Shown here piece by piece: positions 30,764 through 42,956 of a stretch of 64,000 nt of DNA. Positions within the stretch are counted from its first letter, which is position 1, and each line of letters starts with the position of its first letter. Below the pieces are notes generated by a model. It did no database searches. It worked only from the letters and a program-made list of their open reading frames with translations, and had not been told where the DNA came from. Source of the stretch: Gammaproteobacteria bacterium (GTDB taxonomy: Bacteria > Pseudomonadota > Gammaproteobacteria > Eutrophobiales > Eutrophobiaceae); the NCBI GenBank assembly GCA_965202915.1, contig OZ241847.1, forward strand, positions 1,665,972 to 1,729,971, in the 5' to 3' direction. The position numbers and the translations under genes are program-made.

Positions 30764-33085
30764 TTGCCGTCATCTTCACAGGGGGGCAAACCGCATTCGG
30801 AGCAGATTCTAAACGCTATTGTTATGCCCAAATCACTGAACCTCGATCTCGAACAACCGGAAAAACAGCCCCTGCATGAATTTGCCGAGCAGGCTTATCT
30901 GGATTATTCCATGTACGTCATTCTGGACCGGGCGATCCCCGCCATCGGTGACGGTCTTAAACCGGTGCAGCGCCGGATCATTTATGCCATGTCCGAATTG
31001 GGCCTAAAGGCGACCGCAAAATATAAAAAATCCGCCCGTACCATCGGCGACGTGATCGGTAAATTTCATCCCCACGGCGATGCCGCCTGTTATGAATCGA
31101 TGGTATTAATGGCGCAGGATTTTTCCTGCCGTTATCCATTGATCGATGGTCAGGGTAATTGGGGGTCCATGGATGATCCCAGGTCCTTTGCCGCAATGCG
31201 TTATACCGAGTCAAAACTGACCGCCTATGCCGACCTGTTGATGAGCGAGGTCGGCCAGGGTACGGTCGACTGGATGCCGAATTTTGACGGCACCCTGCGG
31301 GAACCGCAATTACTGCCGGCGCGCTTGCCCAATATCCTGTTAAACGGATCGGCGGGCATTGCGGTGGGCATGGCCACCAATATTCCGCCGCATAACCTGC
31401 GCGAGGTCGCGGCCGCCTGCATCCATTTGCTGGACTCGCCCAGGGCCACGGTTGAAGAACTCTGTGAATATATCAAAGCCCCTGATTTTCCCACCAACGC
31501 CGAAATCATTACCCCGGTCGAGGAGCTTTTGGAGATCTATAAAAGCGGCGGCGGCTCAGTCAAAATGCGGGCCGTGTGGCAGCGGGAGGACGATAATATT
31601 ATTATCACCGCGTTGCCGTACCAGAGTGCCGGCGGTCGGGTGTTGGAACAGATAGCCGCGCAAATGCAGGCGAAAAAACTGCCGATGCTGGCCGATCTGC
31701 GAGATGAATCCGATCATGAGAACCCCACCCGGCTGGTGTTGATCCCCCGTTCCGGCCGATTCGACCCGGATAAATTGATGTCGCATCTGTTTGCCACCAC
31801 CGATCTGGAGAAAAGCAGCCGGGTTAATCTGAATATCATCGGCATCAATGGCCGGCCACGGGTAAAAGACCTGGCGACGATCCTCAGGGAATGGTTGCAA
31901 TATCGGCTGGCGACGGTCAGACGCCGCCTGCAGCATCGCCTGGACAGCATAGAGGCACAACTGCATATATTGGCGGGCCTGATGATCGCCTATCTGAACC
32001 TGGACGCGATCATTGCGATAATACGGGAACAGGAGAACCCGAAATTAATACTGCGGCGGCAGTTTGCACTCAGCGACCGGCAGGCCGAGGCGATACTGGA
32101 ATTAAAATTACGCAAACTGGCCCGATTGGAGGAGCTCAAACTCAAGGGCGAACTCGATAAACTTGAGGCCGAACGCCGCTCATTGCAGCAGATTCTCGGC
32201 TCCCGGCGGCGGCTCAATACATTGATCAAACGAGAGTTACAGGCGGACGCGAAAACCTTTGGCGATGACAGACTATCACCATTGAAGCAAAGACGGGAAG
32301 CCAGGGCCATCGACCCGGTAAGCCTGGTGCCCACCGAACCGATCACCGTTATTCTTTCAAAAAAAGGCTGGATCAGGGCCGCAAAGGGCCATAACATCGA
32401 TCCGCTGGCATTGAATTATCGCAGTGGTGACGGCCTCCGGCAGACCAGCGCCGGCAGAAGTAATCAAAACGTTTTATTGCTGGATTCCACCGGCCGCTGC
32501 TATTCCCTGCCGGCACATTCCCTGGCCTCCGCACGCGGTCTGGGTGAACCGGTTTCAGGACGGTTGATGCCGCCGGATGGCGCGGTATTTATCGGCGTGA
32601 TGACCGGCGATCCCGAGGCCATGTATTTGCTGGCCTCGGACGCCGGCTATGGTTTTGTTGCAACCCTGGCGGCGCTGCATACCAGGAATAAAAACGGCAA
32701 GGCGGTGATCACCGTGCCGGCAGGGGCAAAGCTGCTTTGCCCGGCGGGGGTTGACGACGTGGAAACCGGTCGAGTGGCGGTAGTCAGCTCAATCGGGCGG
32801 TTGCTGATTTTTCCAATCGCTGAATTACCGGTATTGTCGAAGGGCAAGGGCCTGAAGATCATTCAAATTCCGCCGCAAAAATTGAAGACAGGAGCGGAAC
32901 GGGTCGCCGCAATCACCGCCCTTGGCCACGCCGATGATCTGATCATTCACTCAGGCCAGAGATATATGACCCTCAGGCGGCGCGATCAGGAATACTATCT
33001 TGGCCGCCGCGGACGCCGAGGCAACACCCTGCCGCAGGGGTTTCGCAACGTCGCCCGGTTAAAGGCCGGCGGGGTCGATACGTGA
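30764..33085 (+). CDS. parC: DNA topoisomerase IV subunit A.
   Basis: 773 aa. The N-terminus [45 protein letters not shown] matches E. coli ParC. Confidence 0.9.
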
Positions 33086-33426
33086 ACGGCGGTTGCGTCG
33101 GAAGACGACCCTTGCCAGGCGGTGAATCTGCACATCCTATGACCACTTGCACACCGCCTATAACCACGAACATCGTAAAGCACGGCACAAAGGCGTATAT
33201 GAATGGAATGGCTCACACAAACGGCATTGAGAGTGTCTGGGCGATGCTGAAAAGAGGGATTTACGGCACCTATCACCATGTCAGCAAAAAGCACCTTAAC
33301 CGCTATATTGACGAGTTCATATTCCATTTGAATGAGGGAAACGTCAATGTCTTGCTGGTAAGCCGTATCGCTTCGTTGAGTTGTATGAGCGCAGGCATGC
33401 CCTATAAGCCACTGCTCAGGGGATGA
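33082..33426 (+). mobile_element. IS1595-family (ISXO2-like) transposase C-terminal remnant.
   Basis: ...HTNGIESVWAMLKRGIYGTYHHVSKKHLNRYIDEFIFHLNEGNV... matches the C-terminal DDE-region tail of IS1595-family transposases. The N-terminal ~250 aa are absent, and the fragment abuts the parC stop codon. Confidence 0.65.
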
Positions 33427-34343
33427 GCACAATGCCAAGTCTCAATGCTATTGCGGCTAGTTGTTCAAAGTCCATATTCCAGTCACGCATTATCACCGGC
33501 GATGTTCTGAAAACACTGAAAAACCAGCCCTTTAATCTGAAGTTTGATGTAGTAATTGCCGACCCGCCGTATAACATTGGCAAGGATTTTGGGAACAACA
33601 ACGATAGCCTACCTATTGACGATTATGTCGACTGGTGCAACCAATGGCTAGAGCAATGCTTTCGCCTGTTGACCGATAATGGATTGGTCTATGTGTACGG
33701 GTTCCACGAGGTTTTAGCGCGTATTGCAGTAAATTATCCGGTGGATGAGCAACGCTGGCTGGCGTGGCATTACACTAACAAAGCAGTGCCATCCTCAAAG
33801 TTCTGGCAACGATCCCACGAGGCAATCCTGTGCCTGTGGAAACCGGGGACCAAGCGGCCAATATTGGAAATTGACCAAATCCGAGAACCATACACACCCA
33901 ATTTCCTCAAATGTGCTGGCAGGGAGAGAAACGACACAAAGGGCAGGTACAGCAAAAAAGGAAAAAAGACAATTTACAACGACAACGGCGGCGCACTTCC
34001 TCGTGATGTAATTGATATACCTGCATTAGCTGGCGGTGCTGGTCGGGTGGAGCGGTGGTTTTCATGCCGGGAATGTGGCGGAGAGGTGAGGCCGCCTAGT
34101 GAATTGGCAAATCATGCTGGCCACAGCATACTCAAACATCCTACTCAAAAACCAATGGAGTTGACTAGGCGGCTGATATTGTCCCGAATCAACGGCCGGC
34201 AGGGCCGCACCTTGATACCCTTCACAGGGTCAGGCTCCGAGTGTGTAGTTGCAAAATCGCTTGGAGTCGAGTTTCTTGGCATTGAAATCAATCCTGAATA
34301 CGCTAAATTCGGGCGCAGTTGGTTAAAGCAATGTACCACTTGA
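33423..34343 (+). CDS. Site-specific DNA methyltransferase (N4/N6 amino-MTase, beta class).
   Basis: 306 aa. DPPY (VVIADPPYNIG) lies upstream of motif I (IPFTGSGSECVVA). The HPTQKP motif and a Cys-rich insert are present. Confidence 0.85.
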   Translation: MSTMPSLNAIAASCSKSIFQSRIITGDVLKTLKNQPFNLKFDVVIADPPYNIGKDFGNNNDSLPIDDYVDWCNQWLEQCFRLLTDNGLVYVYGFHEVLARIAVNYPVDEQRWLAWHYTNKAVPSSKFWQRSHEAILCLWKPGTKRPILEIDQIREPYTPNFLKCAGRERNDTKGRYSKKGKKTIYNDNGGALPRDVIDIPALAGGAGRVERWFSCRECGGEVRPPSELANHAGHSILKHPTQKPMELTRRLILSRINGRQGRTLIPFTGSGSECVVAKSLGVEFLGIEINPEYAKFGRSWLKQCTT

Positions 34344-34921
34344 CTCCGCGAATGACGCAACGGCTCAAAGCGGACCTGGCCAAATACCACGATCTGTTCA
34401 CAGGAAAACGATGCGAGAGTTGGGAATTGGAAGAGTTGATTGTTGCAGCAATCAAATCAGACACGCAGGCACAGCATCATGTTCGTTGGCAGGAAAAGGG
34501 GCATGATGATCTCGCCGATATTGTCGTGCGGACGAATGGATCACAGCATTCAATTCAAATCAAATCCGGGCAGATAAAAGCAGGCAAGTTGATATTGTCT
34601 GGCCACAGATTGGGCCGATTCAATGGCGTAATGGATGATATTGGCGCATACCTCAATACGCCGAGAGCAAATATCATGGCGGTTCCGCACAGATTGATAG
34701 ATGATAGCAAAGGGCGCCAGCATATTTATCGCGTATGCTATGTGGATATTAAGATAATGACTGGCCTTGAGACCAATAAATGGGAAAAGCGGGGCGCGCA
34801 ATATGTCCAAACAAACGCGGGAGGTGTAGAGTTCTCTTTGCGGCCGTCTATGAGTTGGCAAATCTGGTGGGCTATACCCGTAAGCCTAATTGAACAAACC
34901 GATGAGTTTGTTATCGGCTAG
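34319..34921 (+). CDS. Putative type II restriction endonuclease (PD-(D/E)XK-like), cognate to the upstream MTase.
   Basis: 200 aa overlapping the MTase by 25 bp. A candidate catalytic core HDDLADIVVR...SIQIKSG (D...D...QxK) is present. The assignment rests mainly on context. Confidence 0.45.
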   Translation: MVKAMYHLTPRMTQRLKADLAKYHDLFTGKRCESWELEELIVAAIKSDTQAQHHVRWQEKGHDDLADIVVRTNGSQHSIQIKSGQIKAGKLILSGHRLGRFNGVMDDIGAYLNTPRANIMAVPHRLIDDSKGRQHIYRVCYVDIKIMTGLETNKWEKRGAQYVQTNAGGVEFSLRPSMSWQIWWAIPVSLIEQTDEFVIG

Positions 34922-34991
34922 TTTGTTTATTTCAGGGTATAATTCCCTAATATAGCCTCTTTTCCAGCCCATCTATATTTTAAAGAAAAAA

Positions 34992-35554
34992 ATGACGACC
35001 TTCAGCACCAATCAATTCAAACCCGGCTTAAAGCTGATGATAGACGGCGAGCCGTGCTCGATTATTGAAACCGAATTTATTAAATCCGGCAAGAGACAGG
35101 CGTTCAACCGGGTGAAATTGCGCAACCTGAAAAATGGCCGGGTACTGGAAAAAACCTGGAATTCGGGTGACAGTGTCGCCGCCGCGGACGTGATGGAACT
35201 GGATATGCAGTATCGGACGGCGGTCTGTGGCATTTTATGGATCCAGATTCATATGAACAATACGCCGCCACCGCAACCGTGATGACCGACGTCAGTCCCT
35301 GGCTGAAAGGCGGCGAAGTATGCCTGGTCACACTCTGGAATGACTCACTTTTATCCGTGCTGCCGCCGAATTTCGTGATGCTGGCAATAGCCGAAACCGA
35401 TCCGGGGCTGGTGGGAGATACCGTATCATCCGGCACAAAGCCGGCAAAATTGGAAACCGGCGCGATGATAAAAGTGCCGCTGTTTATTGACACCGGTGAA
35501 ATTGTCAAAATAGACACCCGCACCGGTGAATACGTTGGCCGCAGCAAATCCTAG
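34992..35554 (+). CDS. efp: Elongation factor P. Its frame is interrupted by an apparent 1-nt deletion near 35211-35216 (ORFs 34992..35282 and 35237..35554).
   Basis: The N-terminal part [46 protein letters not shown]...MQY and, in the -1 frame, [16 protein letters not shown]...[27 protein letters not shown] align collinearly with E. coli EF-P. The junction is TAT-CGG versus an expected TATTCG. Confidence 0.85.
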
Positions 35555-35595
35555 CGGTCACCGCCGCAGTTAGCCGCGTCGCAACAAACATTTTA

Positions 35596-35624
35596 TTGAC
35601 GTTTCGGTGCAATATGGCTATACT
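35596..35624 (+). promoter_or_regulatory. Strong candidate sigma70 promoter for the FG-GAP protein gene.
   Basis: TTGACG-N17-TATACT, followed by a direct repeat ttttggttaagat x2 and the RBS AGGAG before ATG 35742. Confidence 0.55.
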
Positions 35625-35741
35625 TTCAATGATTGGCCCGATAGGTGATTTACGGGGCTATTTCGGGACCATTTCGTTTTTGGTTAAGATTTTGGTTAAG
35701 ATATTACCCCTTACAACGCTTAGGATATACAGGAGCTTCAG

Positions 35742-36032
35742 ATGGGCAGCAAGGCAAAATTCAAGGGCGGCTTATTGCGCCCGGTATCGCTGACGACCGG
35801 GTTGCCGGTGCTCGGTGCCTTTGGCAGCAACCGGATTTACCGCAGCACTGAGCAAACCGACGCCGAGATCGACCCCGGAGCCGGGCTTATTTTGTCGCCG
35901 GACGCAACGACTGGATTGCCGGGGCAAGTTGAGGCGCTTATCCTGTCGGCAAACCCGGCCTCTGGTCCGCTGAGTTTTACCCCCCCCCCCCCCCCTCAAT
36001 CCCAAGCCAGGCCTAGCGTCACAGGCATATAG
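35742..36032 (+). CDS. 5' segment (96 codons) of the FG-GAP repeat protein gene, terminated by a frame shift at the poly-C tract.
   Basis: A good promoter and RBS sit upstream. The ORF runs into the C16 tract (coding TPPPPP) and stops 36 nt later. The downstream 1010-codon frame is open from 35974 through the same tract. Confidence 0.6.
   Translation: MGSKAKFKGGLLRPVSLTTGLPVLGAFGSNRIYRSTEQTDAEIDPGAGLILSPDATTGLPGQVEALILSANPASGPLSFTPPPPPQSQARPSVTGI
35980..35995 (+). repeat. Homopolymeric poly-C tract (16 nt) inside the coding region, a candidate slipped-strand phase-variation switch.
   Basis: C16 read directly from the sequence. C15 or C18 would fuse 35742..36032 with 36091..39123 into one ~1,126-codon ORF. 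Confidence 0.9.
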
Positions 36033-36090
36033 CCCCTCCGGGCACCTGGCCCTGTCCGCCAGTCTGCCGTACCTGCCGGCCGCGCAGTCG

Positions 36091-39000
36091 GTGGCACCAC
36101 CACCGCCGGTGACCCCGGCAAACCCGTTACCCCCGGCGTCCGCGCTTATCGACCAACAATCGCAGGCCTTTGAGCCGCTTGCACTGCACGCCACCGCAAC
36201 CGGGCCACAGCGGCCCGAAGTCGCATTTCAGACCGGCGCTGTATCCCTGGTCTCTCTGAACCTGAACCAACAGCAGGGTATAGAGGCGCAAGACGCACAA
36301 ATACTGTATTACGTCGCCCTGTCGCCGGCCAATTTGACGACCCTGCTGGACAATCTGAGGGGAACCGACGCCGAGGCGGATCTTATAACCCGTGCGAATG
36401 CCTGGCTGAACCAGGACCTGGGCCTGAGCACCCTGCCCGATCTGAACAATGACAATATCCTGAACCAGGAGGATGCACGCATCCTGTACTATGCCTATCG
36501 GTTTGGCGATCTGCTGCGCGTCAGTCCCAGCCTGCGCGAGGCAATACTGGGCGATCTGACCGACGAAGACGATAGTGCCGCCAATCCGGATGACGTATAT
36601 CGGGAGATACTGGACCGGACTGGGTTATTCAGGCCGTCGGTGATCGACCTGACCAGCCTTGGTGAGGCCGACGGCTTTATTATCCAGGGCGATGCGGCCA
36701 GGGACGGGGCGGGCGTGAGCGTATCCACTGTCGGCGACGTCAACGGCGACGGCTATGCCGATGTAATCGTCGGGGCGCGCGGTGGCGACGACGGTGGCAG
36801 GAATGCCGGCGAGGCCTACGTGGTATTTGGCAGGGCGGGCGCCTTTGGCAGCCTGGACGGCACCAACCGCCGGGTGATCGACCTGACCAGCCTTAGCGAG
36901 GCGGACGGTTTTATCATCCAGGGCTTGGGAGGCGACCAGGTGGGCGAGGGCATATCCGGCGCCGGCGACGTCAACGGCGACGGCTATGCCGACCTGATTG
37001 TTGGGGCGCACCTGGGTGACGACGGTGGCAGGAATGCCGGCGAGGCCTACGTGGTGTTTGGTAAGGCGGGCTTCTTTGGCAGCCTGGACGGCACCGACCG
37101 CCGGGTGATCGACCTGACCAGCCTTAGCGAGACGGACGGCTTTATTATCCAGGGCGACGCGGTCGGGGACCGTGCAGGCGAGCGCGTATCCGGCGCCGGG
37201 GACGTGAATGGCGACGGCTTTGCCGATCTGATCGTCGGGGCGCAGTCGGCCAACGACGGTGGTACCGATGCCGGCGAGGCCTACGTGGTGTTCGGCAGGG
37301 CGGGCCCCTTTGGCAGCTTGGACGGCACCAGCCGCCGGGTGATCGACCTGACCCGCCTTAGCGAGACGGACGGCTTTATTATCCAGGGCGACGCGGTCGG
37401 GGACCGTGCGGGCTGGAGCGTATCCGGCGCCGGGGACGTGAACGGTGACGGCTATGCCGACCTGATCGTCGGGGCGCTCTATGGCGACGACGGCGGGGAA
37501 AATGCCGGCGAGGCCTATGTCGTGTTCGGCAGAGCATCCGGCTTTGGCAGTGACGTCACCACCACAGTGGATGGGGAAGGCAGCTTCATCCGCCGGGTGA
37601 TCGACCTGACTGGTCTGAGCGAAGCCGATGGCTTTATCATCCAGGGCGATGAGGCCGGTGCCTATGCGGGCAATAGAGTTGGTGATACTGCGGGCTTTAG
37701 CGTATCCGGCGCCGGGGACGTGAACGGCGACGGCTATGCCGACCTGATTGTCGGGGCACGCCGGGGTGACGACGGTGACGACGTTGACGTCAATGCCGGC
37801 GAGGCCTACGTGGTGTTAGGCAAGGCGGGCGGCTTTGGTATTGACGTCACCACCACAGTTGAGAGGGAAGGCAGCTTCACCCGCCGGGTGATCGACCTGA
37901 CGAGCCTGGCCGCGGAGGACGGCTTTATCATCCAGGGCGATATGGCTGGGGACAATGCGGGCTTTAGCGTATCCACTGCCGGGGACTTCAACGGCGACGG
38001 CTTTGCCGACCTGATCGTCGGGGCACTTGGGGGCGACGACGGTGGGGAAAATGCCGGCGAGGCCTACGTGGTGTTCGGCAAGGCGGGCGGTTTTGGTATT
38101 GACGTCACCACCACAGTTGAGGGGGAAGGCAGCTTCACCCGCCGGGTGGTCGACCTGGATGGCCTGGTTGCAACGGACGGCTTTATTATCCAGGGTGATG
38201 CGCCTGGCGACTATGCGGGCTATAGCGTATCCGCTGCCGGCGATATAAACGGCGACGGCTATGCCGACCTGATCGTCGGAGCAATCAGGGGCGACGACGG
38301 TGACGACAGTGACATCAATGCCGGCGAGGCCTACGTGCTGTTCGGCGGCCTGGCCGCCGGCCTAAGTTCCGAGGCCACCGTATTACTCGGCACCGGCGGC
38401 AACGACGACCTCAACGTCGACGGCCGTGCCACGGTTGTACTCGCCGGCGCCGGCGATGACGTGCTGACCGTGGACGGCTTCACCAATACCGATCTGCTCA
38501 AATTCGATGGCGGCACCGGCACCGATACCCTGCGCTTCGCCAACCCCGACGCAGACACCGGCCTGAGCCTGGATTTAAGCACCCTCGCCGACACCCGCCT
38601 GAGCAGCATAGAGCGCATAGACCTCAGTGGCAGCGGCGACAATAGGCTAACCCTGATCCGTCTGGACCTGTTGAACCTGTCCGAGGCGCGCACTAATGGC
38701 CGCGCCGAGCTACGGGTCGACGGCAACGCCGGCGACCGCGTCAGCGCCACCGATACCGGCTGGACGCAGCAGGCTGATATCATCACCGACGACGGCATGT
38801 ACAGGGTCTTTGACAACGGCAATGCCCGCCTGCTGGTCAATATGGAGGTGGCGCTGGGCGACAATTTAATGGCGGCCAGCATGGCCAGCCGGGATGAGCT
38901 CCTGCAAAGCTGTTGCGGCACGCAGACCGTCGATATCCGCGCATTGCTGCAGGCCCTGCCGCCGCCGGACGAAGAGCAACAGCGCAGGATCATGGAAGAT

Positions 39001-39123
39001 GAATTGGCGATGTTGGGGCCGTCACCGGAGGCAAAGGCGGCGATGATGCCTGATGAACCCACGGCGGCACCGGAGACCGACCTGTTCGACCTGCCGCCGC
39101 TCATCCCGGATGATGGCATGTAG
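36091..39123 (+). CDS. Large FG-GAP (integrin-alpha-like beta-propeller) repeat protein with an N-terminal Pro-rich linker plus a dockerin-like module and a C-terminal Gly/Asp-rich region loosely reminiscent of RTX repeats. It is probably the distal part of the phase-variable gene starting at 35742.
   Basis: About 10 tandem ~72-aa repeats (RRVIDLTSLSEADGFIIQGD...GDVNGDGYADLIVGA...DGG.NAGEAYVVFG.AG.FG) match the FG-GAP consensus. The N-terminus carries a dockerin-like pair (LNLNQQQGIEAQDAQILYY..., DLNNDNILNQEDARILYYAYRF). The C-terminus has GGNDDLNVDG...AGAGDDVLTVDG...FDGGTGTDTLRF. Confidence 0.8.
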   Translation: MAPPPPVTPANPLPPASALIDQQSQAFEPLALHATATGPQRPEVAFQTGAVSLVSLNLNQQQGIEAQDAQILYYVALSPANLTTLLDNLRGTDAEADLITRANAWLNQDLGLSTLPDLNNDNILNQEDARILYYAYRFGDLLRVSPSLREAILGDLTDEDDSAANPDDVYREILDRTGLFRPSVIDLTSLGEADGFIIQGDAARDGAGVSVSTVGDVNGDGYADVIVGARGGDDGGRNAGEAYVVFGRAGAFGSLDGTNRRVIDLTSLSEADGFIIQGLGGDQVGEGISGAGDVNGDGYADLIVGAHLGDDGGRNAGEAYVVFGKAGFFGSLDGTDRRVIDLTSLSETDGFIIQGDAVGDRAGERVSGAGDVNGDGFADLIVGAQSANDGGTDAGEAYVVFGRAGPFGSLDGTSRRVIDLTRLSETDGFIIQGDAVGDRAGWSVSGAGDVNGDGYADLIVGALYGDDGGENAGEAYVVFGRASGFGSDVTTTVDGEGSFIRRVIDLTGLSEADGFIIQGDEAGAYAGNRVGDTAGFSVSGAGDVNGDGYADLIVGARRGDDGDDVDVNAGEAYVVLGKAGGFGIDVTTTVEREGSFTRRVIDLTSLAAEDGFIIQGDMAGDNAGFSVSTAGDFNGDGFADLIVGALGGDDGGENAGEAYVVFGKAGGFGIDVTTTVEGEGSFTRRVVDLDGLVATDGFIIQGDAPGDYAGYSVSAAGDINGDGYADLIVGAIRGDDGDDSDINAGEAYVLFGGLAAGLSSEATVLLGTGGNDDLNVDGRATVVLAGAGDDVLTVDGFTNTDLLKFDGGTGTDTLRFANPDADTGLSLDLSTLADTRLSSIERIDLSGSGDNRLTLIRLDLLNLSEARTNGRAELRVDGNAGDRVSATDTGWTQQADIITDDGMYRVFDNGNARLLVNMEVALGDNLMAASMASRDELLQSCCGTQTVDIRALLQALPPPDEEQQRRIMEDELAMLGPSPEAKAAMMPDEPTAAPETDLFDLPPLIPDDGM

Positions 39124-39131
39124 CCACCACC

Positions 39132-39424
39132 GGAGCCCGTGACTCCCGTCGCGGGTAAAACAACCCCCCCTGACAAGGGGGCAGGGGGGGTTCCCCCAAC
39201 ACCGGCACCTTACCCCAATCACCCCGGATTCCCAAACTGCACCGAGTCTTTGCCGAACAACACCAAACCACCCCAATTAACACCAAACCCCCCAACCCCC
39301 CTTGTCAGGGGGGCTACTGAGCGACACCGGCACCTTTCCCCCAACCAACACCGTGAGCGGGGCTGAGTTGCGGGTTGACGATAATGTTGATTGTTATATA
39401 CCCGCGACGGGAGTCACGGGCTCC
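39132..39424. mobile_element. MITE-like element copy A (293 bp) with 26-bp perfect terminal inverted repeats.
   Basis: ggagcccgtgactcccgtcgcgggta ... tacccgcgacgggagtcacgggctcc. The interior shares ~200 bp with copy B and carries C/G homopolymer hairpins. It begins 9 bp after the stop codon of the FG-GAP gene. Confidence 0.8.
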
Positions 39425-39580
39425 TGTGATGAGCGGTGCAGGCCTCTGCTGAACAATTTCATTTGATAACGGCGGGGCGTGGGTCTATACTGACTATATG
39501 AAAGATACGAGCATACCGGTAACACCCTGTGGCAAGTGGATGATAACTGTCGTCCCGTATAAATTATCCGGTACCTGAAT

Positions 39581-40027
39581 ATGGAAGCCATCGCATTTGA
39601 TACCCATAAATTTGTCAAGCACCTGACTGCATCGGGTTTCACCGAAGCGCAGGCGGAAGCCCTGGCCGGTGAGCAGGTCGATATGATTAACAGCAATCTG
39701 GCCACCAAGGCCGACATAGAGAAACTGCGCCTGGCCACCAAGGCCGACATAGAGAAACTGCGCCTGGCCACCAAGGCGGACATAGAGCAACTGCGCGCGG
39801 ACACCAGGGCGGACATTGCCGAGGTGAAGGCGGACATAGAGAAACTGCGCCTGGCCACCCAGGAGGACATAGAGAAACTGCGCCTGGCGACCCAGGCGAA
39901 CATAGAGCAACTGCGCGCGGACACCAGGGCGGACATTGCCAATACCGAATCAAGACTGACGCGCTGGATCGTTGGTGCGATGATTGCGCAGATCGGCGTG
40001 GTTGTCGGGTTGATTAAATTGAGTTGA
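39581..40027 (+). CDS. DUF1640-like coiled-coil protein with a C-terminal transmembrane helix and internal 11-aa tandem repeats.
   Basis: 148 aa. The N-terminus MEAIAFDTHKFVKHLTASGFTEAQAEALAG is followed by (LATKADIEKLR)n encoded by 33-nt tandem repeats (~39697-39950) and a C-terminal hydrophobic WIVGAMIAQIGVVVGLI. Confidence 0.6.
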   Translation: MEAIAFDTHKFVKHLTASGFTEAQAEALAGEQVDMINSNLATKADIEKLRLATKADIEKLRLATKADIEQLRADTRADIAEVKADIEKLRLATQEDIEKLRLATQANIEQLRADTRADIANTESRLTRWIVGAMIAQIGVVVGLIKLS

Positions 40028-40029
40028 CA

Positions 40030-40292
40030 GGAGCCCGTGACTCCCGTCGCGGGTAAAACCCACACCCAGCACGCCGGATTCCCCAACCCCCCCGGATTCC
40101 CAAACTGCACCGAGTCTTTGCCGAACAACACCAAACCACCCCAATTAACACCAAACCCCCCAACCCCCCTTGTCAGGGGGGCTACTGAGCGACGCCGGCA
40201 CCTTTCCCCCAACCAACACTGTGAGTCGTGCTGAGTTGCGGGTTGACGATAATGTTGATTGTTATATACCCGCGACGGGAGTCACGGGCTCC
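40030..40292. mobile_element. MITE-like element copy B (263 bp), same family and orientation as copy A.
   Basis: Identical TIRs. Its 5' module (caggag+hairpin+taaaacccacacccagcacgccggattcc) is homologous to the core unit of the 2133..2800 array. Confidence 0.8.
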
Positions 40293-40411
40293 TGTAACTA
40301 TAAGGCAACCGCCGGACAAAACCCGCCAGGCCGGATCTGCCGGGATCAAACAATATCTATTATGCTCGGCCTGCTTTACAATGTAAGCGATATGAACGGA
40401 ATGAGCCTGCA

Positions 40412-41443
40412 ATGATTAAAGCCGGAATTATTGGCGCCGCCGGTTACAGTGGCGTTGAATTAATGCGTCTGTTGCTGAGCCATCCCGAAGTTGATTTGCA
40501 TTGCGCGACCTCGGATACGGAAAATGGCAACAAAATAAGTGACTGTTTTCCGGGGTTTCGCGGGCACCTTGATTTGGTCTTCAGCGATCATGACGCTGAT
40601 TTGTTATTTCAGTCGGACGTGATTTTTTTTGCCACGCCGAGTGCGGTGGCGATGGCCAAAGCGGCGACGTATCTGGCAAAAAAGATCAGGATCATAGACC
40701 TGTCGGCTGATTTCCGTCTGCGGGATGAGACGACCTGGCAGCAGTGGTATGGGGTAAAACATGCCCATCCTGAGTTATTGCGGGAGGCCGTTTATGGCTT
40801 GCCTGAAATAAACCGGGAGCGAATAAAAACCGCGCAACTGGTTGCCAATCCGGGTTGTTACCCCACCGCCATCCTGTTGGCATTGATACCCCTTATGGAA
40901 ACCAACGGGATCGATGTTAATGAGATCATCGCGGATGCAAAATCCGGGGTCAGTGGCGCCGGTCGCCAACGGCGGCCGGAACAGGGCTACTGTGAAATTG
41001 ACGGTGGCTTCAGGGCCTATGCGGCTTCAGGGCACCGGCATTTGCCGGAAATATTGCAGATATTGCAGGTTTATAGCGAGGCCAAAATCGATTTGACTTT
41101 CGTCCCGCATCTGGCCCCGATGATACGCGGTATAGAGGCCACAATCTATGCCCGTTTAAGCGACGTCGGTGTCGATGTTCGGAGGCTTTATCAGGAGCGC
41201 TATCAAAATGAGTATTTTGTGGACGTGATGCCGGTCGGCGCACACCCGGACACGCGCTCGGTCAAAGCCACTAATCTATGCCGAATAGCATTGCATCGGC
41301 CCGGCGATGGTGATCGCCTGGTGGTGCTGTCGGTGCTTGATAACCTGGTTAAAGGGGCGGCCGGTCAGGCCGTGCAGAACATGAATCTTATGTTCGGTAT
41401 CGAGGAAAAGACCGGTCTCGTCAACCTGGCTGAGTGCCCTTGA
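40412..41443 (+). CDS. argC: N-acetyl-gamma-glutamyl-phosphate reductase.
   Basis: 343 aa with MIKAGIIGAAGYSGVELMRLL and the catalytic Cys region (ANPGCYPTA). Confidence 0.93.
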   Translation: MIKAGIIGAAGYSGVELMRLLLSHPEVDLHCATSDTENGNKISDCFPGFRGHLDLVFSDHDADLLFQSDVIFFATPSAVAMAKAATYLAKKIRIIDLSADFRLRDETTWQQWYGVKHAHPELLREAVYGLPEINRERIKTAQLVANPGCYPTAILLALIPLMETNGIDVNEIIADAKSGVSGAGRQRRPEQGYCEIDGGFRAYAASGHRHLPEILQILQVYSEAKIDLTFVPHLAPMIRGIEATIYARLSDVGVDVRRLYQERYQNEYFVDVMPVGAHPDTRSVKATNLCRIALHRPGDGDRLVVLSVLDNLVKGAAGQAVQNMNLMFGIEEKTGLVNLAECP

Positions 41444-41456
41444 TGGACGCAATCCC

Positions 41457-42173
41457 ATGCACAGGCTGATCGTTAAACCGCATCGCCCGTTATATTCTTA
41501 TCTGATCATGATAGCCGCGGGTATTGCGCTGTTTGCCGGCGTCTGGCTGCCGCTCAATTATTATCAGCCGAATATCGCTCAGGAGCTGGTGACGCCTAAG
41601 GACGTTCAGTCGTCGGAGGGGGGTAAGCGGCCGCTGGAGAGTGAAAATAAGGTATTGGCAGAAAAGATAATACGATTGGAACGCGATCTGCAGATAGACC
41701 GCATGACCGCTATCGCTCTACAGAAGGAGATCATGGAGCTACAGGGTAAAGTCGGTGAATTGACCGGTGAACTGGAATTTTATCAGAGCATTATGGGCTC
41801 AACTCAAAACTCCAATGGCTTGAATATACATAAATTGCTGGTCGAACCGATGAAAGCGCCATACTATTACCGCTTCAAACTTATATTAACGCACGTCGCC
41901 AAGGATCGTATTGTTGCGGTCGAGGGAGAGATGGATTTATTGATAGACGGAATAAAAGATGGTAATATGCAGATCTTGAAATTAAAGGACATAGTCGCCG
42001 ATGGTGAATGGGTGCCAAACTTCAAGTTCAAGAATTTCAAGCGCATTCATGGAAGTCTGGTTTTGCCGGAAGGGTTTGAACCGGTTAGAATAACCGCTCG
42101 GCTTGATCGCAAGGGGCGAAAAAATACGGTGATTGAAAAGACCCTGGATTGGTCGGACGCAATTAAACAATGA
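41457..42173 (+). CDS. Hypothetical membrane-anchored coiled-coil protein.
   Basis: 238 aa with an N-terminal TM (IMIAAGIALFAGVWLPL), a ~60-aa coiled coil and a C-terminal globular region. It overlaps the downstream bactofilin gene. Confidence 0.5.
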   Translation: MHRLIVKPHRPLYSYLIMIAAGIALFAGVWLPLNYYQPNIAQELVTPKDVQSSEGGKRPLESENKVLAEKIIRLERDLQIDRMTAIALQKEIMELQGKVGELTGELEFYQSIMGSTQNSNGLNIHKLLVEPMKAPYYYRFKLILTHVAKDRIVAVEGEMDLLIDGIKDGNMQILKLKDIVADGEWVPNFKFKNFKRIHGSLVLPEGFEPVRITARLDRKGRKNTVIEKTLDWSDAIKQ

Positions 42174-42183
42174 AGAGATAAAT

Positions 42184-42615
42184 ATGTTTGGCGGACAAAA
42201 AAAACGTAAATCCACGCGGATAGACACCTTGATTGGGCAATCCTCCAAATTTGCCGGTGATATTCATTTTAGTGGCGGACTGCATATTGATGGTACCGTC
42301 AAGGGTAACGTGTATGCGGAGCATGATGGTAAATCCATGCTATCGCTCAGCGAGTCCGGCCGTATTGAAGGCGAGGTGAAGGTTCCATTCGTGGTGCTCA
42401 ACGGGATCGTTATCGGTGACGTCCACGGAGGCGAGCACGTGCAACTCTCTCCGAAGGCAAATATTACCGGCAACGTGTATTATAATTTGATAGAAATAGC
42501 AATAGGCGCTGAAGTCAACGGCAAATTGGTGCGCTATACGGACGCCGAAGATGAACAATCAGAAGTCGATCATATTGACGTGCTGGAAACAGCCAATAAC
42601 GGAGGTTTAACATGA
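42184..42615 (+). CDS. Bactofilin family cytoskeletal protein.
   Basis: The N-terminus [44 protein letters not shown] matches the bactofilin (DUF583) beta-helical repeat pattern. ATG 42184 is taken as the start. Confidence 0.85.
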
Positions 42616-42956
42616 CGGATCAGGAACAAAGCCCGGTTATTTTTACCGACGCCGCCGCCTCCAAGGTAAAACGACTCATTGCAGAGGAGGACAATGACGG
42701 GCTGATGCTGAGAGTATTTATCAGTGGTGGCGGTTGTTCGGGGTTTCAATATGGCTTTACCTTTGATGAAGATATGACTGAGGGCGACACGGTGGTGGAA
42801 AATGCCGGCGTCAAACTTTTAATCGATCCTATGAGTTTTCAATATCTGGCGGGGGCGGAGATAGACTATACCGAGGGCCTTGAAGGCGCACAGTTTTTGA
42901 TTCGCAATCCCAATGCCACCACAACCTGCGGCTGTGGCCAGTCTTTTACGGCTTGA
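42612..42956 (+). CDS. erpA: Iron-sulfur cluster insertion protein ErpA (HesB/IscA family).
   Basis: 114 aa with [14 protein letters not shown]...CGCGQSF, three conserved Cys. Confidence 0.9.

Follow-up and report, generated by a model that had tools for sequence, protein, structure and literature searches.

A poly-C tract in the gene of a large FG-GAP protein from a gammaproteobacterium: a probable phase-variation switch within a multigene family

Contig OZ241847.1 of the Gammaproteobacteria bacterium assembly GCA_965202915.1 was analysed over a stretch of 64,000 nucleotides (forward strand, positions 1,665,972 to 1,729,971; hereafter the window, with position 1 as its first letter), in which a homopolymer of 16 cytosines interrupts the gene of a large FG-GAP repeat protein at 35742-39123. 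In all likelihood the tract is one of several switches in a gene family of this environmental bacterium whose members turn on and off at random. The explanation favoured here, with a probability of about 0.75 on the sequence evidence, is slipped-strand phase variation, with the gene OFF as assembled and embedded in a multigene phase-variable family. Phase variation had been proposed from the window alone; the reading is now supported by a difference in tract length between strains (C16 and C13) and by paralogs with tracts of G18 to G28 in both ON and OFF states.

A proline-rich linker is partly encoded by the C16 tract. According to the proposed mechanism, this tract would gain or lose bases by slipped-strand mispairing during replication. 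Tract lengths of 3n (12, 15, 18) would place the two parts of the gene in frame and turn it ON, while at lengths of 3n+1 or 3n+2 translation would end 7-11 codons past the tract, leaving the gene OFF, as predicted for C16 in the assembled state. With a tolerant proline or glycine linker, changes of three bases would be silent and changes of one or two bases would truncate the protein just past its leader. Paralogs that switch independently would lead individual cells to display different subsets of large, calcium-binding-type surface or secreted proteins. Switching would presumably be frequent and reversible within a population, and the variation may be adaptive, for instance in defence against phages or grazers, or in attachment.

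The poly-C tract and the gene around it

The features of the gene, all on the plus strand, are as follows.

35596..35624, +, promoter-like site of the sigma-70 type, TTGACG-N17-TATACT, 10/12 matches
35731..35735, +, Shine-Dalgarno sequence AGGAG, 6 nt before the ATG at 35742, -6.6 kcal/mol
35742..35979, +, frame-0 coding part with the family leader (aa 1 to ~56) and the start of the linker, from leader profile and codon usage
35980..35995, +, C16 homopolymer encoding a proline run, the proposed switch, which sets the downstream part in frame +1
35996..36216, +, proline/alanine-rich linker in frame +1, from the tract to the EVAFQTG motif
36030..36032, +, TAG closing the 96-aa frame-0 product, 11 codons past the tract
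36217..36642, +, helical module with two DxNxD...(I/V)LYY motifs, common to all paralogs and to protein P0001
36639..38400 (approximate), +, seven FG-GAP repeats (Pfam FG-GAP) forming an integrin-alpha-like beta-propeller
38401..39123 (start approximate), +, C-terminal domain conserved among paralogs, with GxGxD-type motifs, an acidic proline-rich tail and the stop codon

No homopolymer in the window other than the C16 tract exceeds 9 nt, and three 9-mers rank next in length. The C16 tract is entered in codon 80 by the upstream open reading frame (ORF), which runs in frame 0 from 35742 to 36032 and encodes 96 aa. Frame +1 is open from 35974 (a TGA at 35971-35973 precedes it) through the tract to the stop codon ending at 39123; its first start codon is the GTG at 36091, with none earlier in the linker, and the product from there is 1010 aa long. 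When the tract is shortened in silico to C15 a single ORF of 1126 aa results, and with C18 one of 1127 aa; C14 and C17 lead to stops after 90 and 91 aa. Over all modelled lengths from 10 to 20, 3n tracts give 1125-1127 aa, 3n+1 tracts 94-97 aa and 3n+2 tracts 89-92 aa, the stop in this last phase lying 7 codons past the tract. Within the 1126 codons the C16 spans codons 80-85, about 7% into the gene. The tract, the ORF from 35742 with its stop at 36032, the 1010-codon frame (36091..39123, open from 35974 through the tract) and the restoration of one gene of ~1,126 codons by C15 or C18 had all been described in the original prediction and are borne out by the sequence.

The same applies to the promoter and ribosome-binding site ahead of 35742. 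The promoter-like site at 35596-35624 is one of two 10/12 matches on the plus strand in a scan of 35300-40500, which found no promoter-like plus-strand site between it and the end of the gene, and the AGGAG at 35731-35735 is among the strongest Shine-Dalgarno sequences of the window gene starts tested. The downstream ORF had been described as lacking both signals. For the promoter this holds; for the Shine-Dalgarno sequence it holds at GTG 36091 (-1.7 kcal/mol) but not fully at GTG 36109, the start chosen by the gene caller in a second assembly of the locus (L001, see below), which has a weak and poorly spaced GGTGG 14 nt upstream (-5.1 kcal/mol). Many real genes of the window score no better than this. 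An Rfam scan of the window returned three tRNAs only and no RNA element near the tract.

The 5' untranslated region also contains a perfect 12-nt direct repeat (TTTTGGTTAAGA twice, at 35651-35662 and 35678-35702), slightly upstream of which a third assembly of the locus (L082) has an 11-nt deletion.

On the evidence of homology and coding signal, 35742-39123 is one gene for a protein of ~1126 residues, split at the tract. The N-terminus of the 96-codon ORF (MGSKAKFKGGLLRPVSLTTGLPVLGAFGSNRIYRSTEQ) shares the leader consensus M..KAK.KG..RP..LT...V.G..NRIYR with intact paralogs, in which the leader reads MT[DE]KAK.KGLRPL.LT..PL...LPV.GA..NRIYRAEE. Five such paralogs, P0016 (1180 aa), P0035 (1444 aa), P0041 (1662 aa), P0024 (1291 aa) and P0128 (1449 aa), run unbroken from this leader through the EVAFQTG and twin DxNxD..LYY module and the FG-GAP propeller to the C-terminal domain. 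A profile of nine paralog leaders, built with the window sequence excluded to keep the test non-circular, was compared with 1208 six-frame segments of the window and matched one of them, the 96-codon ORF (E 1.9e-8; next best E 1.3), with an alignment that begins at profile position 1, corresponding to the ATG at 35742. When the first 80 aa were compared by pairwise BLAST with the N-terminal ends of P0024, P0016, P0035 and P0041, E-values of 1e-11 to 1e-6 resulted. In a codon-usage model trained on 33 long window ORFs, the signal is coding-like in frame 0 over ~35710-35950 and moves to frame +1 at 35980. The 79 codons before the tract score 16.4, which is at the 5th percentile of real genes and above the 99th percentile of reverse-strand controls, and the 37 linker codons in frame +1 score 5.3, inside the range of real genes.

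Leader homology, codon usage and the continuity of the paralogs therefore identify the separately called genes of 96 aa and 1004 aa as the halves of one gene, so that the claim of a single gene split by the tract now stands on more than frame arithmetic. That they are two separate genes, a 96-aa protein followed by an FG-GAP protein initiated at GTG 36091 or 36109, can be given hardly any weight: the automated gene calls in L001 (96 aa and 1004 aa) and the weak GGTGG before GTG 36109 speak for it, but the 96-aa ORF is the N-terminal leader of the family, which is fused to the remainder in the intact paralogs, the downstream ORF has no promoter and poor Shine-Dalgarno spacing, and frame +1 is coding-like directly from the tract onward.

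Tract lengths between strains and across the paralogous family

The gene order efp, FG-GAP gene, CCDC90-like gene and argC is recovered in two further assemblies, an ENA metagenome contig (L001) and a Logan contig of SRR23871865 (L082). L001 carries C16, as does the window, from which it differs by single-nucleotide polymorphisms (SNPs), a 1.8-kb IS/methylase insert and two efp indels. L082, ~97.5% identical to the window here, carries C13; therefore the tract length changed between lineages, which answers the check for tract-length polymorphism at related loci suggested with the original prediction. Between the window and L082, 9 of the 14 coding SNPs fall on third codon positions, as do two of the three SNPs in 35742-35979, and the 1010-codon frame is intact, with no further stop. 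Together, the intact frame and the third-position bias imply a gene that has not decayed.

The window and L001 are 100% identical over the 7.4 kb at 35215-42653, which hold the FG-GAP gene, and diverge by 0.5-0.8% in the flanks. This identity suggests recent recombination or a sweep between the strains.

A search with the downstream protein found no fewer than seven paralogs on the 2.49-Mb contig that carries the window gene, and more in ENA sample ERZ25068762. The tract DNA of the paralogs was taken from the ENA sample and is listed by locus.

L084: G28, in frame (ON), 1662 aa
L087: G22, in frame (ON), 1449 aa
L085: G18, out of frame (OFF), 103-aa leader ORF ending GGGGGGYL*, then 1283 aa
L088: G20, out of frame (OFF), 127 + 1296 aa
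L089, L090: G18, out of frame (OFF), 133 aa + >3560 aa
L086: no tract, intact, 1291 aa

At the DNA level, two of the tract-bearing paralog loci are ON and four OFF, and at each OFF locus a one-base change gives a full-length ORF. The OFF loci require a shift of -1 or +1 with no consistent direction, and both of the other phases are occupied. L087 and L088 share synteny, and their flanks have 97% identity (a GHMP kinase, MtdB and an ATP-grasp gene upstream, another giant family member downstream). As L087 has G22 and is ON and L088 has G20 and is OFF, co-occurring strains differ in state at this locus.

Further split members are implied by the leader itself. A search with the leader profile yielded ten short ORFs of 95-169 aa, most of which end between a few and ~30 residues past a glycine run, in either out-of-frame reading; two of them, P0132 and P0136, have no glycine run. 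In the source genome, the short leader ORFs P0127, P0130 and P0134 end right past the glycine run, which, judged from the protein sequences, implies additional split genes there, beside an in-frame family member with Gly6 (P0035). Source-genome tracts at the P0035 and P0023 loci were deduced from the glycine runs of the proteins. All nine homopolymers of at least 10 nt in 170 kb of this lineage lie in the linker, 238-317 nt past a family start codon, and none of at least 12 nt was found in 1.24 Mb of loci from 80 other proteobacterial genomes. The poly-C of the window gene and the poly-G of the paralogs occupy the same linker region at different positions and with different bases; therefore long tracts arose at least twice in the family.

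Several of the family loci show further features around the tract-bearing gene. In L087 (7932-10350) and L088 (14022-18384) another family member lies directly downstream of the G-tract gene (4404 aa in L087; a 2913-aa product on record in L088), with the shared leader and no long homopolymer, and the family includes proteins of up to 4.4 thousand residues with cadherin-like domains. The start-proximal regions in L084-L087 contain similar 'GCTATACT(A/T)T' -10-like boxes, and L087b has TTGACA-N17-TATACT. One to three GCTATACTATAATATGG boxes in a -10-like TATAAT context are found upstream in L084 (2800-3000), L085 (2280-2476), L086 and L087 (upstream of 3001); since their copy number differs between loci, promoter strength may vary among the family members.

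A number of points weigh against phase variation of exported proteins as the explanation. All three assemblies of the window locus (C16, C16 and C13) are out of frame in the same phase, and no ON (fused) allele of this locus was found in the protein collection and clusters searched. The ON and OFF states are known from assemblies alone. The ENA contig names carry coverage values and look like those of a long-read assembly, data for which homopolymers of 16-28 nt are hardest, and single ON/OFF calls may be off by one from homopolymer miscalls. As to export, the leader is only weakly hydrophobic, Pfam and NCBIfam scans found no known domain covering it, and there are no ABC, MFP or TolC secretion genes among the genes of the 64-kb window. 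For the first 170 residues, no ortholog was found outside the lineage.

The extreme form of the sequencing argument, in which a real C15 or C18 leaves the gene intact and the frameshifts here and in the paralogs are consensus errors, is unlikely. Every platform is prone to errors in tracts of 16-28 nt, and random length error would give a ratio of 1:2, to which the paralog states of two ON and four OFF come close. However, C16 is repeated in two assemblies that are set apart by SNPs, the 1.8-kb insert and the two efp indels, and the third, more diverged assembly, from another archive, has C13 and is again out of frame. In addition, all 7-8-nt homopolymers agree between the assemblies across the shared ~19 kb, where the sole single-base gaps lie outside homopolymers, which argues against a sloppy consensus. 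Even with wrong lengths, tracts this long replicate unstably and the locus would still switch.

The shared OFF phase of all three assemblies, together with the many split members of a family large enough that the loss of one copy may cost little, could also be read as a fixed loss-of-function frameshift in a redundant paralog, with the tract as the site of breakage. This is quite improbable given that the 1010 codons contain no second lesion, that promoter and Shine-Dalgarno sequence are intact and that the SNPs relative to L082 are biased to third positions. Moreover, the length change between the lineages is exactly three bases, unlike drift, a single base restores the full ORF, and the syntenic paralogs L087 and L088 show both states.

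A different view of the shared phase is that 3n+1 tracts yield a low level of full-length protein by recoding, either by a +1 slip of peptidyl-tRNAPro on CCC-C or by RNA-polymerase slippage. The motif CCC-C is known to favour +1 slippage, with frameshifting of up to ~1% in E. coli; such non-programmed slips of tRNAPro are suppressed by m1G37 and EF-P, and for the GGG isoacceptor EF-P is indispensable to this suppression (PMC4519876). The tract resembles this system in being a maximal CCC-C context whose C13 and C16 alleles both need exactly +1, in its five consecutive proline codons, which should stall ribosomes, and in its position next to efp, the upstream neighbour of the gene in all three assemblies, which only in the window is disrupted by a 7-nt deletion. 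The predicted junction peptide for a +1 slip on the C16 allele is ..SFTPPPPPLNPKPG.. By contrast, the published effect is a translation error in E. coli reporters, and its use at the window gene is an analogy. The intact paralogs are plain continuous ORFs, the OFF G-tract paralogs need shifts in inconsistent directions, L001 has the same C16 with an intact efp, and no stimulatory element is seen (an upstream Shine-Dalgarno-like site or a 0-frame stop at the shift site). Compared with a programmed +1 frameshift of the prfB type, the arrangement is not conserved among homologs, and two alleles sharing a phase are a one-in-three chance expectation. Recoding is therefore very unlikely. The same low rating is given to the more specific idea that 3n+1 is not a true OFF state, in which ribosomes stalled on five CCC codons would slip +1 with an EF-P-dependent yield and loss or modulation of efp would raise expression of a surface protein gated by polyproline; if true, such slippage would link a translation factor to a contingency locus. 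The notion of 3n+1 as the 'functional' phase, suggested by C13 and C16 sharing it, was set aside, as the ON paralogs are continuous ORFs and the OFF paralogs occupy both other phases.

Protein modules and neighbouring genes

The FG-GAP assignment of the original prediction is confirmed by Pfam PF01839 with seven stretches (E 1.9e-49; 165 bits against a cut-off of 22.1). At the DNA level the propeller region consists of tandem units of 234/258 bp, and its best PDB sequence matches are integrin alpha propellers, at a weak E of about 1e-6. The accompanying label 'dockerin' is not supported, as 36217-36642 has no Pfam match at E<=1 (PF00404 tested); the paralog P0016 reaches E 0.03 and 14.9 bits against PF00404, under the cut-off of 22.9. 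The AlphaFold2 model of this module is helical and of low confidence (pLDDT 50.5), which makes it unusable for fold comparison. The C-terminal domain has only sub-threshold NCBIfam matches of the RTX type, and the RTX nonapeptide PF00353 has no match in the window protein; it is present in many more distant homologs. The proteins of the family are probably exported to the surface or secreted, and the window protein may act as an adhesin.

The N-terminal part seems to be particular to this lineage: the fused N-terminal 300 or 179 aa have no ortholog outside it among 5.8e9 clustered proteins, 1.84e9 representatives, GTDB genomes and JGI metagenomes. The 5.8e9 clustered proteins gave a single match to the N-terminal part, P0001, which covers the helical module alone, and the 1.84e9 representatives gave the C13 allele (P0002) and two low-complexity matches, P0003 and P0004, which were rejected as orthologs because they consist of proline/alanine-rich repeats. 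No protein record was found for the exact 1010-aa product.

The window belongs to the core chromosome, with tkt-gap-pgk-fba, lon, parE/parC, argC, bio genes, purC, rne/rng, prfC, era, lepA and uvrB. Its ArgC is at most 59% identical to that of any GTDB species representative, with best matches spread over Gamma- and Betaproteobacteria. The family loci in the ENA sample adjoin H4MPT-type one-carbon genes, and the gene neighbourhood points to a one-carbon or autotrophic way of life.

In each of the three assemblies, the gene immediately before the poly-C gene is efp (34992-35554 in the window), which encodes EF-P, the factor needed for poly-proline translation. Compared with L001 and L082, the window copy of efp has lost 7 nt (TCTATCA) after 35214 and is thereby split into ORFs of 96 aa and 105 aa. 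Between parC and efp the window has a strain-specific insert at 33129-34944, which is in neither L001 nor L082 and to which the following features belong; in L001 the site is occupied by an IS1595 zinc-ribbon fragment of 80 aa instead.

33082-33426, C-terminal fragment of an IS1595 transposase
33423-34343, N6/N4 DNA methyltransferase
34319-34921, 200-aa ORF, no family match

On the other side of the FG-GAP gene, the CCDC90-like coiled-coil gene (PF07798, 39581-40027) contains 33-bp tandem repeats and is flanked by direct repeats of 215 bp (39213-39427 and 40081-40295, 96.7% identical) with G/C-rich hairpins. Genes of this type also adjoin the family loci in L084, L085, L089 and L090.

Relation to known systems and significance

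Phase variation by homopolymers is a textbook subject in host-adapted pathogens such as Neisseria, Haemophilus, Campylobacter and Helicobacter and is, to our knowledge, rarely documented in free-living environmental bacteria. The mechanism proposed here is classical; what is new is the protein family, the lengths of the tracts and the ecological setting. At the level of the family, the closest resemblance in organisation is to the Opa proteins of Neisseria, about 4-12 paralogs that switch independently through CTCTT repeats in the region coding for the leader peptide. Both are multigene families in which each copy has its own repeat just past the leader and in which ON and OFF states are mixed within a genome. 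Opa genes, however, use pentanucleotide repeats and encode small outer-membrane proteins, whereas homopolymers and proteins of 1000-4400 residues are found here, and the Opa switch is experimentally established while that of the window family is read from sequences.

In N. meningitidis, poly-C tracts of 6-15 bp in the coding sequences of nalP and mspA switch their expression (PMC3723659). As in these genes, the tract of the window gene is a strain-variable poly-C (13 and 16 here) within the coding region of a large protein, probably exported in the case of the window gene, and only one phase gives the protein. Differences exist in the evidence for ON and OFF states, which comes from immunoblots and population surveys for nalP and mspA and from assemblies here, in the proteins, which are autotransporters there and an unrelated FG-GAP propeller here, and in the organisms, a human commensal and pathogen as opposed to an uncultured environmental proteobacterium whose paralog tracts are far longer, up to G28. 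More generally, homopolymeric tracts near the 5' end serve across prokaryotes as switches for gene inactivation (Orsi et al. 2010, PMC2831843). An example is the surface-protein gene inlA of Listeria monocytogenes, in which a frameshift in a homopolymer close to the 5' end leaves a short truncated product and reversion restores the frame (PMC2831843). In contrast to the family described here, inlA is a single gene with an A/T tract of ~7 nt and a far lower switching rate.

Gene callers split genes of this kind into a hypothetical protein of 100 aa and a 5'-truncated giant; therefore databases do not show the leader, and the genes resemble pseudogenes. It appears that homopolymers gate an entire family of very large FG-GAP/cadherin-like proteins, at no fewer than six loci at the DNA level. 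If this is true, the population would hedge its surface make-up combinatorially, with phages, grazers and attachment trade-offs as the likely pressures.

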